Source: Bacteroidia bacterium
GTDB lineage: Bacteria > Bacteroidota > Bacteroidia > AKYH767-A > OLB10
Direction of reading: 5' to 3'
DNA: 64,000 bases
NCBI GenBank assembly: GCA_016788165.1
Contig: JAEUTH010000021.1
Coordinates: 153,046 to 217,045, forward strand
The notes under the pieces are model-generated. The model was given only the letters and a program-made list of their open reading frames with translations. It was not told the origin of the DNA and made no database searches. Shown in pieces: positions 3,770 through 60,836 of the stretch. Made by a program: the position numbers and the translations under genes. Position 1 is the first letter of the stretch. Every line of letters starts with the position of its first letter.

Positions 3770-4150
3770 ATGCAAAATCCATTTATTCGTTTTATACTAA
3801 CGACTATTAAGGGTGGTGTTTTTTTACTGCTTCCTGTATTTGCAATAATTTATGGAGTTTTAAAAGTAGCAGATACGATAAGGCCAATAACCGAACCCAT
3901 AATTTTATATTTTGGTTTTGAGCTAACATTTGGTCCGTTTACACAACAAATTTTTGCCTTACTGATATTGTTTCTCTTATGTTTTATTGCCGGGTTGTTG
4001 CTGCATTTAAAGTTTTTCAAAACATTAAACATTAAAATAGACAGCTTCATAAACCAGCTCATCCCATCATATGGCGCTATGAAAAGCAAGGTTGATAATG
4101 AGCTAAAGCGTTTTAATAGCGATGATAATAAAAACGCAAACCAAACTTAA
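3770..4150 (+). CDS. small polytopic membrane protein (DUF502-like N-terminus, short)
   Basis: 126 aa with two or three hydrophobic helices. The 3' end overlaps the convergent 4147-5370 gene by 4 nt. Family assignment is weak. Confidence 0.3.
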   Translation: MQNPFIRFILTTIKGGVFLLLPVFAIIYGVLKVADTIRPITEPIILYFGFELTFGPFTQQIFALLILFLLCFIAGLLLHLKFFKTLNIKIDSFINQLIPSYGAMKSKVDNELKRFNSDDNKNANQT

Positions 4151-5370
4151 TCACAATTGGTTAGGCTAAAAACGTGTTTCAAGATAGCGGCTTCATCAGT
4201 ATCAAAATTTAATCCCCTACGTTGATACACACGTTGTGCAAGTTCAACTGCATCTTCGATACGAAATACTTCGCCATTACCGGGCTGGCCCCATGTAAAG
4301 CTGGGTATGTGTTTGGGCGGAAACCCCTGTGTAAAAATGTTGGCGGCTACGCCTACTACAGTACCTGTATTAAACTGTGTGTTAATAGCACATTTACTGT
4401 GATCGCCCATGGTTAATCCACAAAATTGCAAACCGGTATCAATGTAATTTTGTTCGAGGTAATCAAACACCTTAATGTTGCTATAATTATTTTTTAAATT
4501 GCTGCAATTGGTATCAGCACCCAAATTGCACCATTGTCCAATAACAGCATTGCCTATATATCCATCATGTGCCTTATTACTATTTGCCATAAAAATGCTG
4601 TTGTTTACTTCGCCACCCACTTTGCAATAATTGCCAACCGTAGTTGCGCCATAAATTTTGGTTCCCATTTTAAGTTGTGCATTATCGCCTAAAGCAAATG
4701 GACCTCTAATCATACATCCTTCCATTACCAAAGCATTTTTGCCAATATAAATGGGGCCGGTACTGCCATTTAAGGTTGATACCAATACTTGGGCATCTTC
4801 TTCAATAAAAATATTTTCAAGACCAATTAACTTATTGGGGGCATATATAGGTTGCGATTTTCTGCCTGCAGTAAGCAAAGCAAAATCAGCTTTAATAGCC
4901 CAATCGTTATAAGTAAAAAAATGCCAACACCTTTCTAAAACAGTTGCTTCCTGCACTTGTAATTGTTCCTTTTTGTTCAATAAAAACCGGTAATCAACAA
5001 TCTCATCCCGGCTGGCACCGGTAGCCAATACAACATCGTTATAAACCAATTGCTGATTAACGCTTAACGAGGCAATGGCATCACATAAAAATGGTGTTGG
5101 TAGTAAAGCCGCATTTATAACAACATTATCCGATTCGGTATGCAATGGATATTTGTTTTCTAAGTATTGTGGCGTTAAATAACTCATGTTTGCCGCCAAC
5201 ATATGTTCCCATTTTTCTTTAAGGGTAAGTATGCCAATTCGTAAATCGGATACAGGTCGCATAAAGGTTAACGGTTTTAATTGCTCATGGTAAATACCAT
5301 CATAGAGTATAAAGTTCACTTTTTTTTGCTGCCAATGTAATATATAGCTTTTAATACAACCTTCGAGCAA
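4147..5370 (-). CDS. putative sugar-nucleotidyltransferase with C-terminal left-handed beta-helix (GlmU-like)
   Basis: 407 aa. The C-terminal half is rich in hexapeptide-like repeats (IGNAVIGQWCNLGADTNCSNLKNN...). The N-terminal half is nucleotidyltransferase-like. Confidence 0.5.
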   Translation of the reverse strand: MLEGCIKSYILHWQQKKVNFILYDGIYHEQLKPLTFMRPVSDLRIGILTLKEKWEHMLAANMSYLTPQYLENKYPLHTESDNVVINAALLPTPFLCDAIASLSVNQQLVYNDVVLATGASRDEIVDYRFLLNKKEQLQVQEATVLERCWHFFTYNDWAIKADFALLTAGRKSQPIYAPNKLIGLENIFIEEDAQVLVSTLNGSTGPIYIGKNALVMEGCMIRGPFALGDNAQLKMGTKIYGATTVGNYCKVGGEVNNSIFMANSNKAHDGYIGNAVIGQWCNLGADTNCSNLKNNYSNIKVFDYLEQNYIDTGLQFCGLTMGDHSKCAINTQFNTGTVVGVAANIFTQGFPPKHIPSFTWGQPGNGEVFRIEDAVELAQRVYQRRGLNFDTDEAAILKHVFSLTNCD

Positions 5371-54904: not shown

Positions 54905-56038
54905 ATGAGTAAGCACGGAAAAATTTTAGTAGCAATGAGTGGGGGCATTGATAGTTCGGTAACGGCCATGTTATTACACGATGCAGGTTATGAAGTTATA
55001 GGTATAACCATGAAAACCTGGGATTATGCCTCATCAGGAACTACCGGTAAAAAAGAAACAGGTTGTTGTAGTTTAGATTCGATAAATGATGCAAGAAGTA
55101 TTGCTGTTGATAAAGGTTTCCCGCATTATATTTTAGACATCAGAAATGAATTTGGCGATTTTGTAATTGATAACTTTGTTTCAGAATACTTAGGTGGTCG
55201 CACGCCAAATCCATGCGTATTATGTAACACACATATTAAATGGGAGGCATTGATTAAAAGAGCCGATATGTTAGATTGTGAATTTATTGCCACCGGGCAT
55301 TATGCGCAAACCAGACAAGAAAACAACAGATACATTGTTAGCAAAGGAGTTGATACTGCCAAAGATCAGAGTTATGTGCTATGGGGCTTGACACAAGAAA
55401 GTTTAGCCCGCACTAAATTCCCTATCGGAGGTTTTAAGAAAACCGAAATCAGGCAAATGGCATTAGATATGGGATTTGAAGAGTTATCGAAAAAAAGTGA
55501 GAGTTATGAAATTTGCTTTGTGCCTGATAACGATTATCGTGCTTTTTTAAAGCACAGAGTGCCCGGTATAGAAACCAAACTGGGTAATGGTAATTTTATT
55601 GATATGGATGGTAAAGTTATGGGTAAGCATAATGGGTATCCGTTTTATACTGTGGGGCAACGCAAAGGGCTTGAAATAGCCTTTGGCCAACCCATGTATG
55701 TTATTAAAATAAATCCAAACGACAACACGGTAGTTTTGGGCCCATACGAAGCTTTGCAAAAACAAACCATGCTGGTACGTGATGTTAATTTAATAAAATT
55801 CGAGTCACTTATTGAACCAGTTGAAGCACTAACAAAAATCAGATATAAAGATCCGGGCACACATGCAACATTAATTCAGCAAGACAACCTGATGCGTGTT
55901 GATTTTCATAAACCTGTAAATGCAGTTGCACCCGGTCAAAGTGCTGTGTTTTATGATGATATGGATGTTATTGGTGGTGGATTTATTGCCCGCGATAATG
56001 CTGTTGAAAAAATTAAACATGCAACTAATCATGCGTAG
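54905..56038 (+). CDS. mnmA: tRNA 2-thiouridine(34) synthase
   Basis: 377 aa with PP-loop SGGIDSS and catalytic Cys residues; MnmA family layout. Confidence 0.9.
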   Translation: MSKHGKILVAMSGGIDSSVTAMLLHDAGYEVIGITMKTWDYASSGTTGKKETGCCSLDSINDARSIAVDKGFPHYILDIRNEFGDFVIDNFVSEYLGGRTPNPCVLCNTHIKWEALIKRADMLDCEFIATGHYAQTRQENNRYIVSKGVDTAKDQSYVLWGLTQESLARTKFPIGGFKKTEIRQMALDMGFEELSKKSESYEICFVPDNDYRAFLKHRVPGIETKLGNGNFIDMDGKVMGKHNGYPFYTVGQRKGLEIAFGQPMYVIKINPNDNTVVLGPYEALQKQTMLVRDVNLIKFESLIEPVEALTKIRYKDPGTHATLIQQDNLMRVDFHKPVNAVAPGQSAVFYDDMDVIGGGFIARDNAVEKIKHATNHA

Positions 56039-56735
56039 TTTTAATAAGCTGCTATTATGTTTAGCAACTATTGCTGCTTTTTTCAATTTTCAGGGTTGTA
56101 CTAAAAGCAATATACCTGCAATTGATTTTGGTTACAACTACTTTCCGGTTAACATTAATCATTACATTATTTACGATGTTGACTCGGTAAACAAAGATGC
56201 GTTTACTGGTTTAGTTACCCACAGTAGTTATCAGATTAAAGAAGTAATTGCAGGTGTTTACAATGATAATGAAGGCAGACCAACGCTTCGCATTGAGCGT
56301 TTTAGAAAAGATACTTCGACTTATATTGATTGGACCATTTTTCAGGTTTGGACAGCAAACCTAACCACAACTACAGCACAACGTTTCGAAGATAATAAGC
56401 GCTATGTTAAGTTGACTTTTCCGGTAAAAGAAAACCGTGTTTGGAATGGAAACAGTATGAATACAGAAGATGCAGAAGACTACACATATCAAAATGTAAA
56501 TCAACCTGAATACTTTAATCAACTTGTTTTTGATAGTGTACTAACTGTTTTACAAGCAGATGATTTATCCAATATAATTTCGCCTAAATACAAGCTCGAA
56601 AAATATGCCAGTGGTGTAGGTTTGGTTTATCGAAAGAAGTTTGAAGTTACCATGCACACCAATCCCATTACAGGCAATCTTGATACGAGTGCATTCGTTG
56701 ATTATACCGAATCCATTTTAAGTTTTGGGAATTAA
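56031..56735 (+). CDS. hypothetical lipoprotein
   Basis: Signal plus lipobox (FNFQGCTKS). Start chosen at Met 56031, overlapping the mnmA stop by 8 nt; the upstream part of the listed ORF is out of frame with respect to mnmA. Confidence 0.45.
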   Translation: MRSFNKLLLCLATIAAFFNFQGCTKSNIPAIDFGYNYFPVNINHYIIYDVDSVNKDAFTGLVTHSSYQIKEVIAGVYNDNEGRPTLRIERFRKDTSTYIDWTIFQVWTANLTTTTAQRFEDNKRYVKLTFPVKENRVWNGNSMNTEDAEDYTYQNVNQPEYFNQLVFDSVLTVLQADDLSNIISPKYKLEKYASGVGLVYRKKFEVTMHTNPITGNLDTSAFVDYTESILSFGN

Positions 56736-58807
56736 TATGCACCTGCATATTTTCTTACAAACCACTCAGTACTAAGCAACGTAATAAGTAAAACAAAAAC
56801 CCATTTTTCATTAACAAGGTCTTTAAGCTCTTTATGCAAGTAACTGGTACTGGTTATTTCGGGCCTGCTTTCAATTAATTTGCTTATCGCGTCTAATGAT
56901 TGCGGATAAACCATAACACCGCCACTGCGTTGCGCAACATTAAGTAACATATTATGGTTGGCAATACTTGAAGTTAACTCTGCTTGTAACGGTGCAACGG
57001 TTAACGAACCATGATATGTGTATTGTTTGGTGCCAATTGAGGCAGTTGATTTTAGTTTATAAGTACCTACCGGAAACAAGCCGGCTTGCAACGTATAAGC
57101 CAAATTGGTTTTACTAAAAGTATAATTATATGTTTTTCCATTACCCGAAATTTCAAGCATTACGTCATTACTGTTTATTAATTCACCAGCTTCATTAACA
57201 AGTTCAGCATCTATAATAATTGCTTCATTATCGTAAACATAATTTTTATGCTTTACTCTGAATGGCGATTTGTTTTCGGCTGTTGCTAAATACTGCACGG
57301 TTTTAAGAATAAATTCATCTGCTAATGTTTTCGAGTTGTTTACTGCAAAGTCTTTTAAACTCCAGCGCCATAAGCCTTCGCCACATAGTATTGCATTTTT
57401 TTTATTTAAGTTACTCAACAATAAAAGAGGCTGATTACTTACCACATTACCTATACGCTGGTTTAATGCAATAACACATTCCGATGTTGGCCTGTAAACG
57501 CCAAAAGGTATGGTTAAGGGTGGCCAGTTTTCAATAGATTCTTGCAAGGCCACACTCCATGTAAAGAGGCCAAAATTTTTATCCATACTGGCTTGTACTG
57601 AATTTGTTTTACCGTTGGAAGCATTAATATTTATACCTGCCTGCACTCCATTTAAGGCAGTTATATCGGTTTGCATGCCAATAATAGTCCACTGTGGTAC
57701 ATCGCTTTTATAAATTTGATCAATCAAATTTTTATGTTTCGCATCAGGCAACTGATGTAATATTATTAAATTGTAACTGGTTACATTTCCTTTAAAATCA
57801 TCAATATAATTTACGCTTACATCATAATTCTGACTACTGCTTAATGCATCTTTAATTGTACGTATATCTGGGTGTGGTGATAGCGCAAGTATCAAAACCT
57901 GTAATTTGCGTTCGAGTACATCAACAAATACATCGGTTTTATTATTTGCTTCGCTAAGTTCGGCAGCAATGCTGCTTAGCTTAATCTTTAAATGCTGTAT
58001 GCCTTTTTCTTTGGCATCAATATAAACAGGTACGTTCAGGTTGAAATTATTGCTATTAATATTTACGTCTTTTGTAAATATCACGTTACTATCCAGCAAA
58101 ACTTCTAAGGTTGTATTTTGTCCGGCACACTGCTTGGCTTCAATCAAAATTTCAATGGGGTAGGTGTTGCCTAAAAATGCTGTTTTATTGTGTTTAACCT
58201 TTGCAAGTATCAAATCTTTTTTTGCTGTGGTATCGCCCATTGCAATGGTATAAAACGGCACTTTTAACTTTTCGCTTGCATATAGCAAGCTGCTTCCCGC
58301 ATTGTAAATACCATCAGTAGCAATAATAACAGCGCCCAGGTTTCTGTTGTCGAAACGGGCTGAAAGGTTTTCGAATAATATACTGTAATCTGTTTGTTTT
58401 TGAGGATAAGAAAAATCAAAACCTGGTTTGGTTTCGCTTCCAAAGTTTAAAGCACGCACATCATAGTTGGAAGAAAGATGTTTTTGAAGATTATTAAGTT
58501 TTTCTGCAAACTCGGTTTTATAAAAGCCTGAGTCTTTACCTAAGGTGATTGATTGCGATGCATCTTGTGCAATAATGATTAGTGGTTTTTCTACGGTGCG
58601 TGTTATGCTCTTTAGCAGTGGCGAGAGTAGTAAAAATGCAAGTATGCTTACAACCATAAACCTTAAAGCCATTAAACTTCTTTTAATGGAGGTTGATAAT
58701 GCGGTTAAATTATCTTTATGATAAAGTAAAAGTGCATATGCTGCACCTAGTAACAAACAAAAAACAATAAACCAAAGTGGCTTTTCGGTAATCAGTTCAA
58801 AATTCAA
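56732..58807 (-). CDS. vWA-domain membrane protein (BatA-like N-terminus, C-terminal TM anchor)
   Basis: 691 aa. Two N-terminal TMs, then a MIDAS-like DASQS motif (IIIAQDASQSITLG), a long middle region, and a final TM (WVFVLLITLLSTEWF). Confidence 0.5.
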   Translation of the reverse strand: MNFELITEKPLWFIVFCLLLGAAYALLLYHKDNLTALSTSIKRSLMALRFMVVSILAFLLLSPLLKSITRTVEKPLIIIAQDASQSITLGKDSGFYKTEFAEKLNNLQKHLSSNYDVRALNFGSETKPGFDFSYPQKQTDYSILFENLSARFDNRNLGAVIIATDGIYNAGSSLLYASEKLKVPFYTIAMGDTTAKKDLILAKVKHNKTAFLGNTYPIEILIEAKQCAGQNTTLEVLLDSNVIFTKDVNINSNNFNLNVPVYIDAKEKGIQHLKIKLSSIAAELSEANNKTDVFVDVLERKLQVLILALSPHPDIRTIKDALSSSQNYDVSVNYIDDFKGNVTSYNLIILHQLPDAKHKNLIDQIYKSDVPQWTIIGMQTDITALNGVQAGININASNGKTNSVQASMDKNFGLFTWSVALQESIENWPPLTIPFGVYRPTSECVIALNQRIGNVVSNQPLLLLSNLNKKNAILCGEGLWRWSLKDFAVNNSKTLADEFILKTVQYLATAENKSPFRVKHKNYVYDNEAIIIDAELVNEAGELINSNDVMLEISGNGKTYNYTFSKTNLAYTLQAGLFPVGTYKLKSTASIGTKQYTYHGSLTVAPLQAELTSSIANHNMLLNVAQRSGGVMVYPQSLDAISKLIESRPEITSTSYLHKELKDLVNEKWVFVLLITLLSTEWFVRKYAGAY

Positions 58808-58848
58808 TTCGCTATGATTTAATGTTACAATCTATTTTCTGATATCGG

Positions 58849-59439
58849 TTACTTTACATTTGCCCAGCATAACCCACGTGCTATACGTGAAATTTGCATT
58901 TCGCTTACTCCAAAGTTTTCGGCAATTTTAAATTGCAAGTTGCCGGCTTTTAATTGTTTTTTAATTTTTGAAACCTGTTCGCGGTTAAGTTTGGCGGATA
59001 CTGTACCCATACGTGCAGCATATTGTTTATTTCTTTCAGCGGTGCGGTTAACAACGGTTGCAGGCAGGCTCCATTCTAAATTGCTTGCTTTGTTATCTAA
59101 TTTATTCCAATTGTTGTGTATCACAATACTTGCTTTTGGGCTTTTGCGTTTTACAAAATGTTCGGCAACTAAGGTGTGTACATAACGCATTTTTCGTTCA
59201 TTATTAAATACAATATCTACAGCCAAATAACCATTAACTGTTTTGCCTTTTACCAGTTTGCCATTTTCTTTATCGAAGTAAAAACCTATTAAACGCCCCA
59301 TATTGCTAATTAAGTATTTGCGATCGCTGTTTTTTAAAGGTTTCCATACTTCGTTTTTTAAAGAAGTAACCGGTTTCGATTTTGCCTTGTTATTTGTTAA
59401 GACAGGCTTTACAGCTTTACTTACTTTTTTTGTTGCCAT
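58849..59439 (-). CDS. NUMOD4 / HNH_3 homing-endonuclease-like protein
   Basis: 196 aa. EVWKPL...SNMGRL...NGYL...HTLVAEHF...HNNWNKLDNKASNLEW matches the NUMOD4 + HNH_3 pattern of phage free-standing HNH endonucleases. C-terminal HTH-like segment. Confidence 0.7.
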   Translation of the reverse strand: MATKKVSKAVKPVLTNNKAKSKPVTSLKNEVWKPLKNSDRKYLISNMGRLIGFYFDKENGKLVKGKTVNGYLAVDIVFNNERKMRYVHTLVAEHFVKRKSPKASIVIHNNWNKLDNKASNLEWSLPATVVNRTAERNKQYAARMGTVSAKLNREQVSKIKKQLKAGNLQFKIAENFGVSEMQISRIARGLCWANVK

Positions 59440-59507
59440 ATATGCTAAAATTTAGGTTGTAACGTATGTTGTAAACGTAGTAATTAATAATTTATCTGCA
59501 ACATCAG

Positions 59508-60836
59508 TTATCTTTTTACCGGCATATTGCGCATCATGTTTTTCATATTACTGCCGCTCATCATCTTCATCATCTTGCGCATATCTTCAAATTGTTTAAT
59601 TAATTTATTTACCTCTTGTATATTAGTACCACTGCCATCGGCAATGCGTTTTCTTCGGCTGCCGTTTAATAACGATGGGTCTATACGTTCGGCAGGAGTC
59701 ATAGATTTTATTATGGCCTCTATACCATCAAACGATTTATTGTTAATGTCAATATCTTTTACAGCCTTACCAATGCCGGGTATCATGCCAATTAAATCTT
59801 TCATATTTCCCATTTTTTTAATTTGCTGCAACTGACTTAAAAAGTCGTTGAAGTTAAACTGGTTCTTTTGGATTTTACGTTGCAGTTCGGCTGCTTCTTT
59901 TTCGTCAAACTGCTCTTGTGCCCGTTCTACTAATGAAACGATATCGCCCATACCCAATATCCTGTCGGCCATACGGTTTGGGTAAAAAACATCCAAAGCG
60001 TCTAATTTTTCGCCTGTACCTACAAATTTAATAGGCTTGTCAACTACAGCTTTAATACTTATAGCTGCGCCTCCGCGTGTATCGCCATCCAATTTTGTAA
60101 GTACTACACCATCAAAGTTTAGTTTGTCGTTAAATGCTTTGGCAGTATTAACAGCATCCTGCCCGGTCATGGCATCTACTACAAATAATATTTCATGTGG
60201 GTTTATTGCATTTTTTATTGCCGCAATTTCATCCATCATTTCATCGTCAATTGCTAAACGACCTGCTGTATCAATAATTACAACTTGTTTGTTTAATTCT
60301 TTGGCTTTGGCTATGGCACGCTGCGCAATTTGAACCGGATTTTTATTTTCAACTTCGGCATAAACATCCACGCCAATTTGATTTCCTAAAACCGTAAGCT
60401 GGTCAATAGCAGCGGGGCGGTAAACATCACAAGCAGCCAGTAATACTTGCTTTTGTTTTTTGGTTTTTAGGTAGTTGGCCAATTTACCCGATAGTGTGGT
60501 TTTGCCCGAACCTTGCAAACCCGACATAAGTATAATGGTTGGGTTATTTTTAAGGTTTAGTTCGGTATGCGTACCACCCATAAGTTCGGTTAACTCATCG
60601 TGTACAATTTTTACCATCAGTTGCGATGGCGACACTGCCAACATCACATTTTTACCAATTGCTTTTTCTTTAACCTTATCGGTAAAGTTTTTGGCTACTT
60701 TGTAATTAACATCAGCATCTAAAAGTGCTTTACGAACTTCCTTAACGGTTTCGGCAACATTAATTTCAGTTATTTTTCCACTGCCTTTTAAAACTTTAAA
60801 AGCCCGGTCGAGTTTGTCGGATAAATTTTCAAACAT
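59508..60836 (-). CDS. ffh: signal recognition particle protein Ffh
   Basis: 442 aa with an N domain, a G domain (GLQGSGKTT, DTAGR, TKLDG) and a Met-rich M domain. Confidence 0.95.
   Translation of the reverse strand: MFENLSDKLDRAFKVLKGSGKITEINVAETVKEVRKALLDADVNYKVAKNFTDKVKEKAIGKNVMLAVSPSQLMVKIVHDELTELMGGTHTELNLKNNPTIILMSGLQGSGKTTLSGKLANYLKTKKQKQVLLAACDVYRPAAIDQLTVLGNQIGVDVYAEVENKNPVQIAQRAIAKAKELNKQVVIIDTAGRLAIDDEMMDEIAAIKNAINPHEILFVVDAMTGQDAVNTAKAFNDKLNFDGVVLTKLDGDTRGGAAISIKAVVDKPIKFVGTGEKLDALDVFYPNRMADRILGMGDIVSLVERAQEQFDEKEAAELQRKIQKNQFNFNDFLSQLQQIKKMGNMKDLIGMIPGIGKAVKDIDINNKSFDGIEAIIKSMTPAERIDPSLLNGSRRKRIADGSGTNIQEVNKLIKQFEDMRKMMKMMSGSNMKNMMRNMPVKR

Follow-up and report, generated by a model that had tools for sequence, protein, structure and literature searches.

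An HNH endonuclease-like gene beside a membrane-protein gene in Bacteroidia may encode an exapted homing-endonuclease scaffold

On bacterial chromosomes, homing-endonuclease genes usually carry the label 'HNH endonuclease' and are written off as selfish passengers. One gene of this kind lies next to ffh in the 64-kb stretch of Bacteroidia DNA analysed here (the window), and a preliminary description, made from the sequence alone, proposed that it is a selfish endonuclease that homed into a site beside ffh or, failing that, a domesticated nuclease such as an anti-phage or competence-related factor. We asked whether the gene behaves as a mobile passenger or as a gene of its host, and what has become of its active site.

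Results

A solitary gene with I-HmuI architecture

The open reading frame (58849..59439, minus strand) starts with ATG and encodes an intact protein of 196 amino acids, which is deposited at NCBI as HQV00288.1 and MBL7926618.1 under the name 'HNH endonuclease [Bacteroidia bacterium]'. All of the motifs that had been quoted for it were found in the translation (EVWKPL at residues 30-35, SNMGRL at 45-50, NGYL at 69-72, HTLVAEHF at 88-95 and HNNWNKLDNKASNLEW at 108-123). The two spacers were also as described: exactly 68 nt lie between the ffh stop (59508) and the start of the gene (59439), and exactly 41 nt between its own stop (58849) and the TTG start (58807) of the next gene, which encodes a membrane protein referred to here as MEM. 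The gene is likewise free of phage genes nearby, the neighbours called being ffh, a T9SS-tailed protein, a two-component system, mnmA, PspC and DinB. No second copy was found within the 64-kb window, and searches for introns, riboswitches and other Rfam families returned chance-level matches only, both at the locus and across the window, whose sole tRNA lies 30 kb from the gene. Base composition is host-like and fully ameliorated (GC 35.4% and GC3 29.9%, compared with 35.2% and 29.3% for MEM). An 11-nt imperfect inverted repeat surrounds the gene in the window, and a similar short one was seen by eye in lineage L007; because it is absent as a conserved feature in lineage L009, this repeat is probably due to chance.

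The family named in the preliminary description, that of free-standing NUMOD4/HNH_3 endonucleases of the phage I-HmuI type with a C-terminal helix-turn-helix (HTH), was borne out by Pfam, PHROG and fold matches. Pfam NUMOD4 matched residues 30-76 with 28.2 bits (gathering cut-off 23.4) and scored above the gathering level in the other clade members tested (P0015, L123, L126 and L127). Pfam HNH_3 reached 24.6 bits, just below its cut-off of 24.8, over profile positions 1-38 of 46 only; this match ends at W123, ahead of the last motif residue, and HNH_3 scores across clade members ranged from 18.8 to 27.3 bits. PHROG 59 and 959, both 'HNH endonuclease', matched with E-values of 4e-26 and 1e-21, and the top PDB sequence match was I-HmuI (1u3e, E 3e-6). 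These domain matches are far above chance. In a Foldseek search with an AlphaFold2 model of the protein (pLDDT 83.4), I-HmuI 1u3e was the sole PDB fold match at E <= 1e-3 (E 2.6e-7, 176 aligned columns), and 331 viral HNH-endonuclease models from BFVD matched at the same threshold. The HTH is real, with helices at 153-164, 169-176 and 180-187 and matches to PHROG HTH profiles. Together these results show the complete I-HmuI architecture, in which a NUMOD4 beta-sheet at the N terminus and an HTH at the C terminus flank a beta-beta-alpha core.

Comparison with phage HNH endonucleases, which had been suggested earlier, gave 256 phage records matched over at least 80% of the protein, with identities of about 30-35% and at most 35% among the matches listed. 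When we searched IMG/VR with the family alignment for a phage source of the clade, two matches only were found, 25-29% identical and located on contigs of 640-680 kb. Because of these distant matches and the limit of 35% identity to phage homologs, the gene is judged not to be phage-borne. We also considered a role in anti-phage defence. PADLOC matched the protein to its generic 'HEase' model (PDLC03687, 4e-14), no partners of a defence system were found near the gene, MEM had no PADLOC match and the neighbours are housekeeping genes. The defence reading was rejected, because PADLOC had returned a generic homing-endonuclease model only.

The gene is fixed and linked to the gene downstream of it

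The order ffh, HNH-like gene, MEM was found in all 24 contigs that encode the identical HNH-like protein and in 21 of 21 contigs that encode the identical Ffh; the contigs were fetched by exact protein match, hence the sample is biased, and within-species synonymous variation was left out of the analysis. Within the species, the gene is fixed; beyond it, the gene adjoins MEM in seven lineages (the window, L007, L008/L009, L011, L123, L126 and L127), across which MEM identity falls to 48%. Four alternative genes lie upstream of it in these lineages (ffh, surE, SUI1 and ompA), and the genes 3' of MEM vary between lineages too. The preliminary description had treated ffh (SRP54; 59508..60836, minus strand) as the relevant neighbour; ffh is found upstream in the window, L007, L008/L009 and L123 only and lies outside the conserved unit, the constant partner being MEM. 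Outside the clade, the arrangement is fabG-MEM or ABC-MEM and the HNH-like gene is missing, and the gene is absent from L125, where MEM is of comparable divergence.

In a neighbour-joining tree of MEM, the lineages carrying the HNH-like gene cluster together. As bootstrap values are low at the base of this cluster, we say only that the tree is consistent with a single gain of the gene. Pairwise identities of the HNH-like protein and MEM correlate (r = 0.77, p = 4e-5), dN of the one tracks dN of the other, and among clade members there was no pair in which the HNH-like proteins were much more alike than MEM compared over its whole 690 amino acids. Every open reading frame in the clade is intact, and dN/dS is 0.18 against L007 and about 0.1-0.2 in the folded part, values that are approximate because dS is saturated. 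These comparisons indicate that the gene is under purifying selection. The presence or absence of the gene at the locus in related genomes had been proposed earlier as a check on homing, with universal, syntenic presence as the outcome that speaks against it, and we found the gene present and syntenic throughout the clade. With the gene fixed and its metal ligands replaced (see below), the idea of a selfish gene that homed beside ffh is not supported. The fallback of a domesticated nuclease fared better: it describes the data better than homing does, but its anti-phage and competence roles gain nothing from a generic HEase match and a locus with no defence neighbours.

Constraint differs between the modules of the protein

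The protein begins with a disordered, Lys-rich tail (aa 1-29; 59353..59439, minus strand) that has eight Lys and no acidic residues and a pLDDT of 50-55 over aa 1-20 in the AlphaFold2 model. This tail is Lys/Ala/Pro-rich in seven of seven clade members, varies from 23 to 62 aa in length and evolves fast (dN/dS about 0.9). In L123 it gave a weak, compositional match to Pfam HC2 (histone-H1-like; E 0.009), and the clade proteins as a whole are strongly basic, with a pI of 10.3-10.5 and a net charge of +27 to +44. Three folded modules follow on the same strand: the NUMOD4 beta-sheet DNA-binding module (aa 30-86; 59182..59352), which belongs to the most tightly constrained parts (dN/dS 0.09 in comparison with L007), the HNH core of a helix and beta-beta-alpha element (aa 87-145; 59005..59181), which is the least constrained folded module (0.22), and the three-helix HTH (aa 146-196 plus the stop codon; 58849..59004; 0.07), each figure being approximate and resting on 28-59 codons. 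A stretch in the putative recognition helix of the HTH, SEMQISRIARG, is identical in all six sequences of alignment A3, and its counterparts are SEMQISRIANG in L123 and SLMTISR[IV]A[LT]G in L126 and L127. The beta-beta-alpha core has diverged fastest on the branch of the window and L007, with 37-47% identity to L123/L126 versus 70% between L011 and L123.

Metal-ligand positions are replaced and the general base is retained

In I-HmuI, H75 is the general base and D74 and N96 are the metal ligands (PMC12724721, PMC3384342). H108 of the window protein corresponds to H75 and is found without exception in the clade and in 58 of 58 close relatives. The structural Asn pair, N116 and N120, is also invariant in the clade; among the 58 close relatives, N120 is found in all and N116 in 55. 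The positions of the metal ligands are hydrophobic in the window protein, with I107 for D74 and V129 for N96, and clade-wide they hold I, M, V or A and V, A, L or S, respectively. Five phage homologs and I-HmuI fit the pattern [D/N]-H...N(+21)..[H/N](+24), at which the window protein has I107-H108 and V129. Of the 58 closest single-module relatives, six have Asn at 107, and five of these also have Asn at 129. The preliminary description had named substitutions at the catalytic His or Asn as a sign of inactivation, and the outcome is divided: the metal-binding Asp and Asn positions have been replaced, and the catalytic His and structural Asn residues have been kept.

Three further positions, N110, T128 and R132 in the window protein, are mostly Asp, Glu and His in relatives. 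The acidic residue at 110 is kept in four of seven clade members (Asn in the other three) and in 41 of 58 relatives, and that at 128 in five of seven (Thr or Ala in the window and L007) and in 39 of 58. Where they are kept in the clade, D110 and E128 could form an alternative metal site; the branch of the window and L007 is without these alternative acidic residues too. Every clade member has Arg at 132, a position that is His in about half of the relatives. This Arg is not proof of inactivation, because it also occurs in 14 of the 58 relatives, of uncharacterised activity. A site devoid of all activity would not be expected to keep H108, N116 and N120 invariant, except if the His-Asn pair has a structural role. 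Overall, the loss of catalytic residues appears to be partial, the metal ligands having gone and the general-base His having stayed, with NUMOD4 and HTH apparently more constrained than HNH.

MEM and a conserved upstream element

MEM (56732..58807, minus strand; TTG start) is a 691-aa multi-domain membrane protein encoded directly downstream of the HNH-like gene in the seven lineages. It has two N-terminal transmembrane helices, an alpha/beta domain with DxSxS, CARDB-like beta-sandwiches, a GATase-like domain and a C-terminal transmembrane helix. Sequence searches for its identity gave no match in Pfam, NCBIfam or PDB, and fold searches gave generic Ig-like/CARDB and alpha/beta domain matches only. 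Its homologs number more than 1,600 at E < 1e-50. A single MEM protein used as the query of genome contigs matched nothing, and the MEM alignment was used as the query instead.

A conserved non-coding 19-nt element, ACGTTTACAACATACGTTA (59460..59478, minus strand), lies 21-39 nt 5' of the ATG of the HNH-like gene. It is nearly unchanged in L007, L009 and L123 and recognisable in L011, and thus present in five of the seven lineages with the window included; L126 and L127 have a different version in common. The element persists although synonymous sites are saturated, and it occurs as a single copy in the 64-kb window. It is a candidate promoter or operator. A motif shared upstream of 17 non-redundant subfamily members was also sought; CGTTA-like words recur there, but they were unconvincing and were dropped. 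A sigma-70 model, which is unsuited to Bacteroidota, predicted fewer promoters than in shuffled sequence and none in either spacer, and no convincing -33 and -7 boxes could be assigned by eye. No terminator was found in the window's 41-nt spacer to MEM. Clear terminators lie 3' of the HNH-like gene in L011 and L126, and because they intervene there, a simple HNH-MEM operon is not general.

Discussion

We suggest, with a probability of roughly 0.55, that in this protein a homing-endonuclease scaffold has been exapted for DNA binding or regulation, by analogy with WhiA. An I-HmuI-type homing endonuclease would have been acquired long ago and would now be host-resident. The gene was probably gained once, immediately 5' of MEM, in the ancestor of a single clade of uncultured Bacteroidia, where it probably replaced the ancestral fabG-MEM arrangement. 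Since then it has descended vertically together with MEM and under purifying selection, as the flanking genes were reshuffled. Homing activity was probably lost and the protein retained for sequence-directed DNA binding, with its three modules perhaps contacting an extended site and its tail adding non-specific affinity, as might be expected of a regulator or a nucleoid-type protein. The best candidate binding site would be the 19-nt element 5' of its own start codon, which would imply autoregulation. Control of MEM, or the supply of a promoter to it, would explain the invariant adjacency of the two genes.

Vertical inheritance and selection would fit equally well a nuclease or nickase that is host-resident, still active and site-specific, has a remodelled metal site and serves a host function for which DNA must be cut, for example by making a programmed nick, by taking part in repair or recombination at a defined site, or by excluding foreign DNA. 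The invariance of H108, N116 and N120 in the clade favours such activity, as do D110 and E128, which are present in most clade members and common in relatives, and N110 could still bind metal; moreover, relatives of I-HmuI act as nickases whose metal requirements are relaxed (PMC3428280). In the window protein, however, I107, T128, V129 and R132 are non-coordinating, which leaves N110 as the sole candidate ligand. HNH is also the least constrained of the folded modules, its core diverges fastest on the branch of the window and L007, and no defence or repair partners are nearby. We regard continued cleavage as unlikely, though credible.

Free-standing homing-endonuclease genes of phages adjoin the gene that they cut, as do the seg and mob genes of T4. 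The selfish reading of the preliminary description could accordingly be re-anchored from ffh to MEM, with a target in or beside MEM and the gene kept by repeated homing from genome to genome and tied to MEM by co-conversion. The one constant neighbour amid varying outer flanks is what this would predict; a second subfamily upstream of lpd shows the same pattern, and L125, with comparable MEM divergence, is without the gene. Against it, the 21 of 21 contigs of the species show no presence/absence polymorphism, no pair of lineages has HNH-like proteins much more similar than their MEM proteins, and the carriers group on the MEM tree, albeit with weak basal support. Amelioration of GC and GC3 is complete, the viral contigs of IMG/VR hold no member of the clade and the canonical metal ligands are missing. 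Nor is a clade-specific histone-like tail a feature known from homing endonucleases. An active selfish gene is thus improbable here. As for a decaying, functionless remnant, whose presence is tolerated since it provides for MEM expression or leaves it undisturbed, the sub-threshold HNH_3 match, the eroded motif residues, the short 41-nt spacer to MEM and the lack of a terminator in the window could be read in that way. Full-length open reading frames in seven lineages past synonymous saturation, a dN/dS of about 0.1-0.2 in the folded part and the conserved 11-residue stretch of the putative recognition helix already largely refute decay, and the terminators 3' of the gene in L011 and L126 also argue against it, making it very improbable indeed.

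The HNH-like gene behaves as an ordinary host gene would, being old, fixed, selected, linked to a partner and altered at the residues of metal-dependent cleavage. We judge the significance of this to be moderate, as it comes from comparative inference in uncultured organisms. If the protein is a DNA-binding factor as we suggest, it would be a bacterial case of the HNH/I-HmuI scaffold recycled into a regulator, and a sizeable set of similar Bacteroidota genes would be mis-annotated. The gene also offers a testable handle on MEM, a widespread uncharacterised envelope protein of Bacteroidia.

Comparison with known systems

The closest known system is I-HmuI, the intron-encoded nicking enzyme of phage SPO1 (PDB 1u3e), together with its free-standing phage relatives. 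The protein has the same three-module fold, and the general-base His and two structural Asn are in common with I-HmuI. Unlike I-HmuI and the phage NUMOD4/HNH_3 enzymes, the gene lies outside any phage, intron or mobile context and is fixed and inherited vertically beside one host gene. Its product differs from I-HmuI in being hydrophobic at the D74 and N96 equivalents, in having Arg at the +24 His/Asn position and in carrying an extra Lys/Ala-rich disordered tail.

Outside the clade, the closest proteins are encoded by solitary NUMOD4/HNH_3/HTH genes of Bacteroidota (P0006, P0008 and P0013), which have the same architecture at 29-40% identity; one example is a 194-aa protein encoded upstream of lpd in Flavobacterium-like soil contigs. 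Like the window protein, they are hydrophobic at the D74 position and have a SEMQI-type motif in the putative recognition helix, and their genes occur singly between housekeeping genes, with each linked to one specific gene downstream. Unlike it, they mostly keep D110, E128 and H132, have no Lys-rich tail and have other partners. Tentatively, and with the odds leaning against it, all of these may form an unrecognised class of chromosomal DNA-binding proteins of Bacteroidota, regulators or nucleoid factors derived from I-HmuI-type HNH enzymes, with each lineage locked to its own downstream gene (MEM or lpd). Were such a class real, the window clade would be its most advanced branch, having lost both the canonical ligands and the alternative acidic residues and carrying a histone-H1-like tail, and the class would parallel, on a beta-beta-alpha-Me scaffold, bacterial WhiA and the eukaryotic SMAD MH1 domain.

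In WhiA, a transcription factor of Gram-positive bacteria, an HTH is joined to a LAGLIDADG homing-endonuclease scaffold that has degenerated (PMC3240954, PMC3384342). The likeness is one of concept only, a homing-endonuclease fold minus catalytic residues, with an HTH and vertical inheritance, the role as a regulator being inferred for the protein described here. The superfamilies differ (LAGLIDADG versus beta-beta-alpha-Me) and the distribution of our gene is far narrower, so WhiA is an analogue and not a fellow member. The SMAD MH1 domain uses a beta-beta-alpha-metal scaffold of the I-HmuI/I-PpoI type without catalysis and keeps its DNA-binding surface (PMC3384342). It is eukaryotic and its catalytic region has fully devolved, whereas the His is retained in the Bacteroidia protein; the two are likened by scaffold, not by sequence.

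A phage-type HNH protein among housekeeping genes

The gene (HNH) lies on the minus strand at 58849-59439, starts with ATG and encodes 196 aa. A 68-nt spacer separates it from ffh and a 41-nt spacer from the next gene, MEM, which encodes a 691-aa membrane protein (56732-58807, minus strand). The preliminary description had the position and spacers exactly right, and every peptide motif that it quoted was found. Its reading of a solitary phage-type NUMOD4/HNH endonuclease with a helix-turn-helix (HTH) was also borne out. The gene stands alone amid housekeeping genes, and the protein matches Pfam NUMOD4 (28.2 bits; cut-off 23.4), HNH_3 (24.6 bits against a cut-off of 24.8, over profile positions 1-38 of 46 only) and PHROG HNH-endonuclease families (E down to 4e-26); NCBI already labels it 'HNH endonuclease'. 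Its top PDB sequence match (E 3e-6) is I-HmuI (1u3e), the HNH nicking homing endonuclease of phage SPO1. An AlphaFold2 model from 14 homologs (pLDDT 83.4) comprises a disordered N terminus (aa 1-29), a β-sheet module (aa 32-86), a ββα unit whose strands span 105-108 and 121-124 and whose helix spans 126-144, and, at the C terminus, a three-helix HTH (aa 153-187). I-HmuI is its sole significant PDB fold match (176 columns), and the predicted fold matches 331 viral HNH-endonuclease models. Comparison with phage HNH endonucleases, as had been suggested, gave 256 phage records matching over at least 80% of the protein, with identities of ~30-35% among those listed.

HNH is inherited with MEM

The order ffh-HNH-MEM was present in 24 of 24 contigs read with an identical HNH protein and in 21 of 21 with an identical Ffh. 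These contigs stem from many independent samples, and the gene is fixed within the species. The same order occurs in the related loci L007 (Ffh 95%, HNH 64-69% and MEM 68% identical to the window; HNH ranges span local BLAST to global MAFFT values), L008/L009 (89%, 54-56% and 61%) and L123 (87%, 47% and 55%). HNH-MEM is instead preceded by a divergent surE in L011 (HNH 49-51%, MEM 48%), by SUI1 in L126 (49%, 48%) and by ompA in L127 (46%, 50%), and the genes downstream of MEM also vary. Because the flanks vary on both sides whereas the HNH-MEM order is constant, the conserved unit is HNH-MEM, not ffh-HNH. Outside this seven-lineage clade (MEM identity 38-50%), the gene 5' of MEM is fabG-like, the ancestral upstream partner, except in L125, where it encodes an ABC ATPase, and no HNH relative was found beside MEM in the retrieved flanks of up to 5 kb on each side. 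A neighbour-joining tree of MEM clusters the six HNH-carrying lineages with L125 as sister; given its weak basal support, the tree does no more than fit a single gain of HNH beside MEM.

Pairwise HNH and MEM identities correlate (r = 0.77, p = 4e-5), and in no pair of clade members does HNH identity clearly exceed MEM identity, an excess that recent transfer would be expected to leave. Synonymous sites are saturated in every comparison, HNH dN (0.27-0.50) tracks MEM dN (0.23-0.49), and the only pair with measurable dS gives an HNH dN/dS of ~0.18. All ORFs compared are intact, the GC and GC3 of HNH equal those of its neighbours, the clade is absent from the viral contigs of IMG/VR, and no intron or other RNA family was found at the locus. 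Fixation, HNH-MEM synteny, co-divergence, saturated dS, host-like GC and absence from IMG/VR speak against a recent insertion beside ffh of the selfish endonuclease that had been proposed; throughout the clade the gene is present, syntenic and conserved in sequence.

MEM is widespread in Bacteroidia (1,647 homologs at E < 1e-50) and has no sequence match in Pfam, NCBIfam or PDB. In its model (pLDDT 79.6), two TM helices at the N terminus and one at the C terminus enclose an α/β domain with a MIDAS-like DxSxS motif (aa 82-86), CARDB-like β-sandwiches and a GATase-like domain; its start codon is TTG in every clade member examined. Beside it, a mechanical list places a 271-aa ORF at 55920-56735 (plus strand), overlapping the 3' end of mnmA (54905-56038, plus strand) by ~120 nt. 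Public gene calls have there a 238-aa gene on the mnmA strand, convergent with MEM and overlapping its stop region by 4 nt. In L123, the 198-nt HNH-MEM spacer (3803-4000) carries repeated hairpin-forming GTCTGACA(C/T)C / GATGTCAGAC units resembling a REP-like intergenic repeat.

Beyond the clade, the nearest relatives share 29-40% identity and are likewise encoded by solitary genes in the chromosome, on Bacteroidota-like contigs. One of them, a NUMOD4/HNH_3/HTH protein of 194 aa, shares 31-32% identity with the window protein, is highly conserved and lacks D74/N96 equivalents. Its gene occurs on over 40 Flavobacterium-like contigs from soil metagenomes (L043-L114; for example L053 and L063, both at 3932-4516), always directly upstream of lpd (dihydrolipoyl dehydrogenase), a pairing that echoes HNH-MEM. 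Its upstream context is truA-ABC transporter or SusC-SusD-LytTR, a ~125-nt block 5' of the gene (…GTTAAATTAGCGTTATA…) is kept in both, and the small genes after lpd vary. Other family members (P0016-P0019 and others) have 460-840 aa and 3-6 tandem NUMOD4+HNH_3 modules (six of each in P0018), which is unusual among homing endonucleases.

Substituted metal ligands

In I-HmuI, D74 and N96 are metal ligands and H75 is the general base (PMC12724721). A HMMER alignment without gaps across the motif, with which MAFFT alignments concur, pairs I-HmuI D74, H75, D77, N83, N87, N96 and N99 with I107, H108, N110, N116, N120, V129 and R132 of the window protein. Of the HNH catalytic His/Asn named in the preliminary description, the His (H108) is kept, as are N116 and N120; both metal-ligand positions are substituted. 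Five extracted phage homologs read [N]-H...N(+21)..H(+24), and I-HmuI itself D-H...N..N. Across the clade (window, L007, L009, L011, L123, L126, L127), the residues are I/I/I/M/I/V/A at 107, N/N/N/D/D/D/D at 110, T/A/E/E/E/E/E at 128 and V/V/A/A/A/L/S at 129, with R at 132 in 7/7. A library of 1.8 billion proteins supplied the 58 closest single-module relatives. All of these have H108 and N120, and most are hydrophobic at position 107; N at 107 occurs in six, of which five also carry N at 129. D110, E128 and H132 are found in 41, 39 and 32, respectively.

The entire chromosomal subfamily is without the canonical I-HmuI metal ligands; D110, E128 and H132 might serve as an alternative metal site, and the window/L007 branch has lost these candidates too. 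Because both sets are gone, the window protein is probably catalytically inactive, the chief argument against this being the invariant His108. By module, small-sample dN/dS estimates are 0.22 for HNH, 0.09 for NUMOD4 and 0.07 for HTH, and the ββα core diverges fastest on the window/L007 branch (also a small-sample estimate). On these figures no folded part is less constrained than the HNH module, which fits with catalysis being under relaxed constraint.

DNA-binding and regulatory features

All seven clade proteins carry a fast-evolving, disordered, Lys/Ala/Pro-rich N-terminal tail of 23-62 residues with at most two acidic residues; most proteins of the wider family have no such tail. The full-length clade proteins have a pI of 10.3-10.5 and a net charge of +27 to +44. 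The L123 tail weakly matches the chlamydial histone-H1-like HC2 family, a compositional match. The putative recognition-helix stretch SEMQISRIARG is invariant in a six-sequence alignment (A3). A 19-nt element 5' of the start codon (ACGTTTACAACATACGTTA, 59460-59478) is near-identical in L007, L009 and L123 and can still be recognised in L011 although synonymous sites are saturated, L126 and L127 sharing their own version; it is the best candidate promoter or operator. Terminators follow HNH in L011 and L126, where it is therefore its own transcription unit; a terminator scan found none in the window's 41-nt spacer. The ORF is flanked by an imperfect inverted repeat of 11 nt (GTTACAAcCTA / TAGaTTGTAAC, gene strand), one arm lying in each spacer (59453-59463 and 58824-58834); inspection by eye shows a similar pair of 8 nt in L007 and none in L009. 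The repeat is probably due to chance or part of promoter/operator sequences.

Discussion

We favour, at a probability of roughly 0.55, the reading that HNH is an exapted homing-endonuclease scaffold, domesticated as a DNA-binding protein that probably does not cleave, and tied to MEM; all that we say of its function we infer. An I-HmuI-type gene would have inserted 5' of MEM in the clade ancestor, at the same time as the fabG-MEM pair was broken up, and then become fixed. The protein may now be retained because it binds DNA: NUMOD4, the ββα surface and the HTH would make the contacts, and the histone-like tail would add affinity. The protein may regulate itself through the 19-nt element and control MEM, or the gene may supply the MEM promoter, which would explain the unbroken adjacency.

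A host-resident nickase, still active through a remodelled metal site, would accommodate His108 but seems unlikely. We doubt somewhat more that HNH is a truly selfish homing-endonuclease gene that homes beside MEM: it is fixed, co-diverges with MEM, has ameliorated base composition and has lost the I-HmuI metal ligands. Selection on the gene and the integrity of its ORF leave very little room for a neutral remnant of an insertion. In the literature on NUMOD4 and domesticated HNH homing endonucleases we found no co-opted NUMOD4/HNH protein in Bacteroidota. Its nearest precedents in concept are WhiA, which joins a LAGLIDADG scaffold to an HTH (PMC3240954, PMC3384342), and the SMAD MH1 domain, with its devolved ββα-metal core (PMC3384342).
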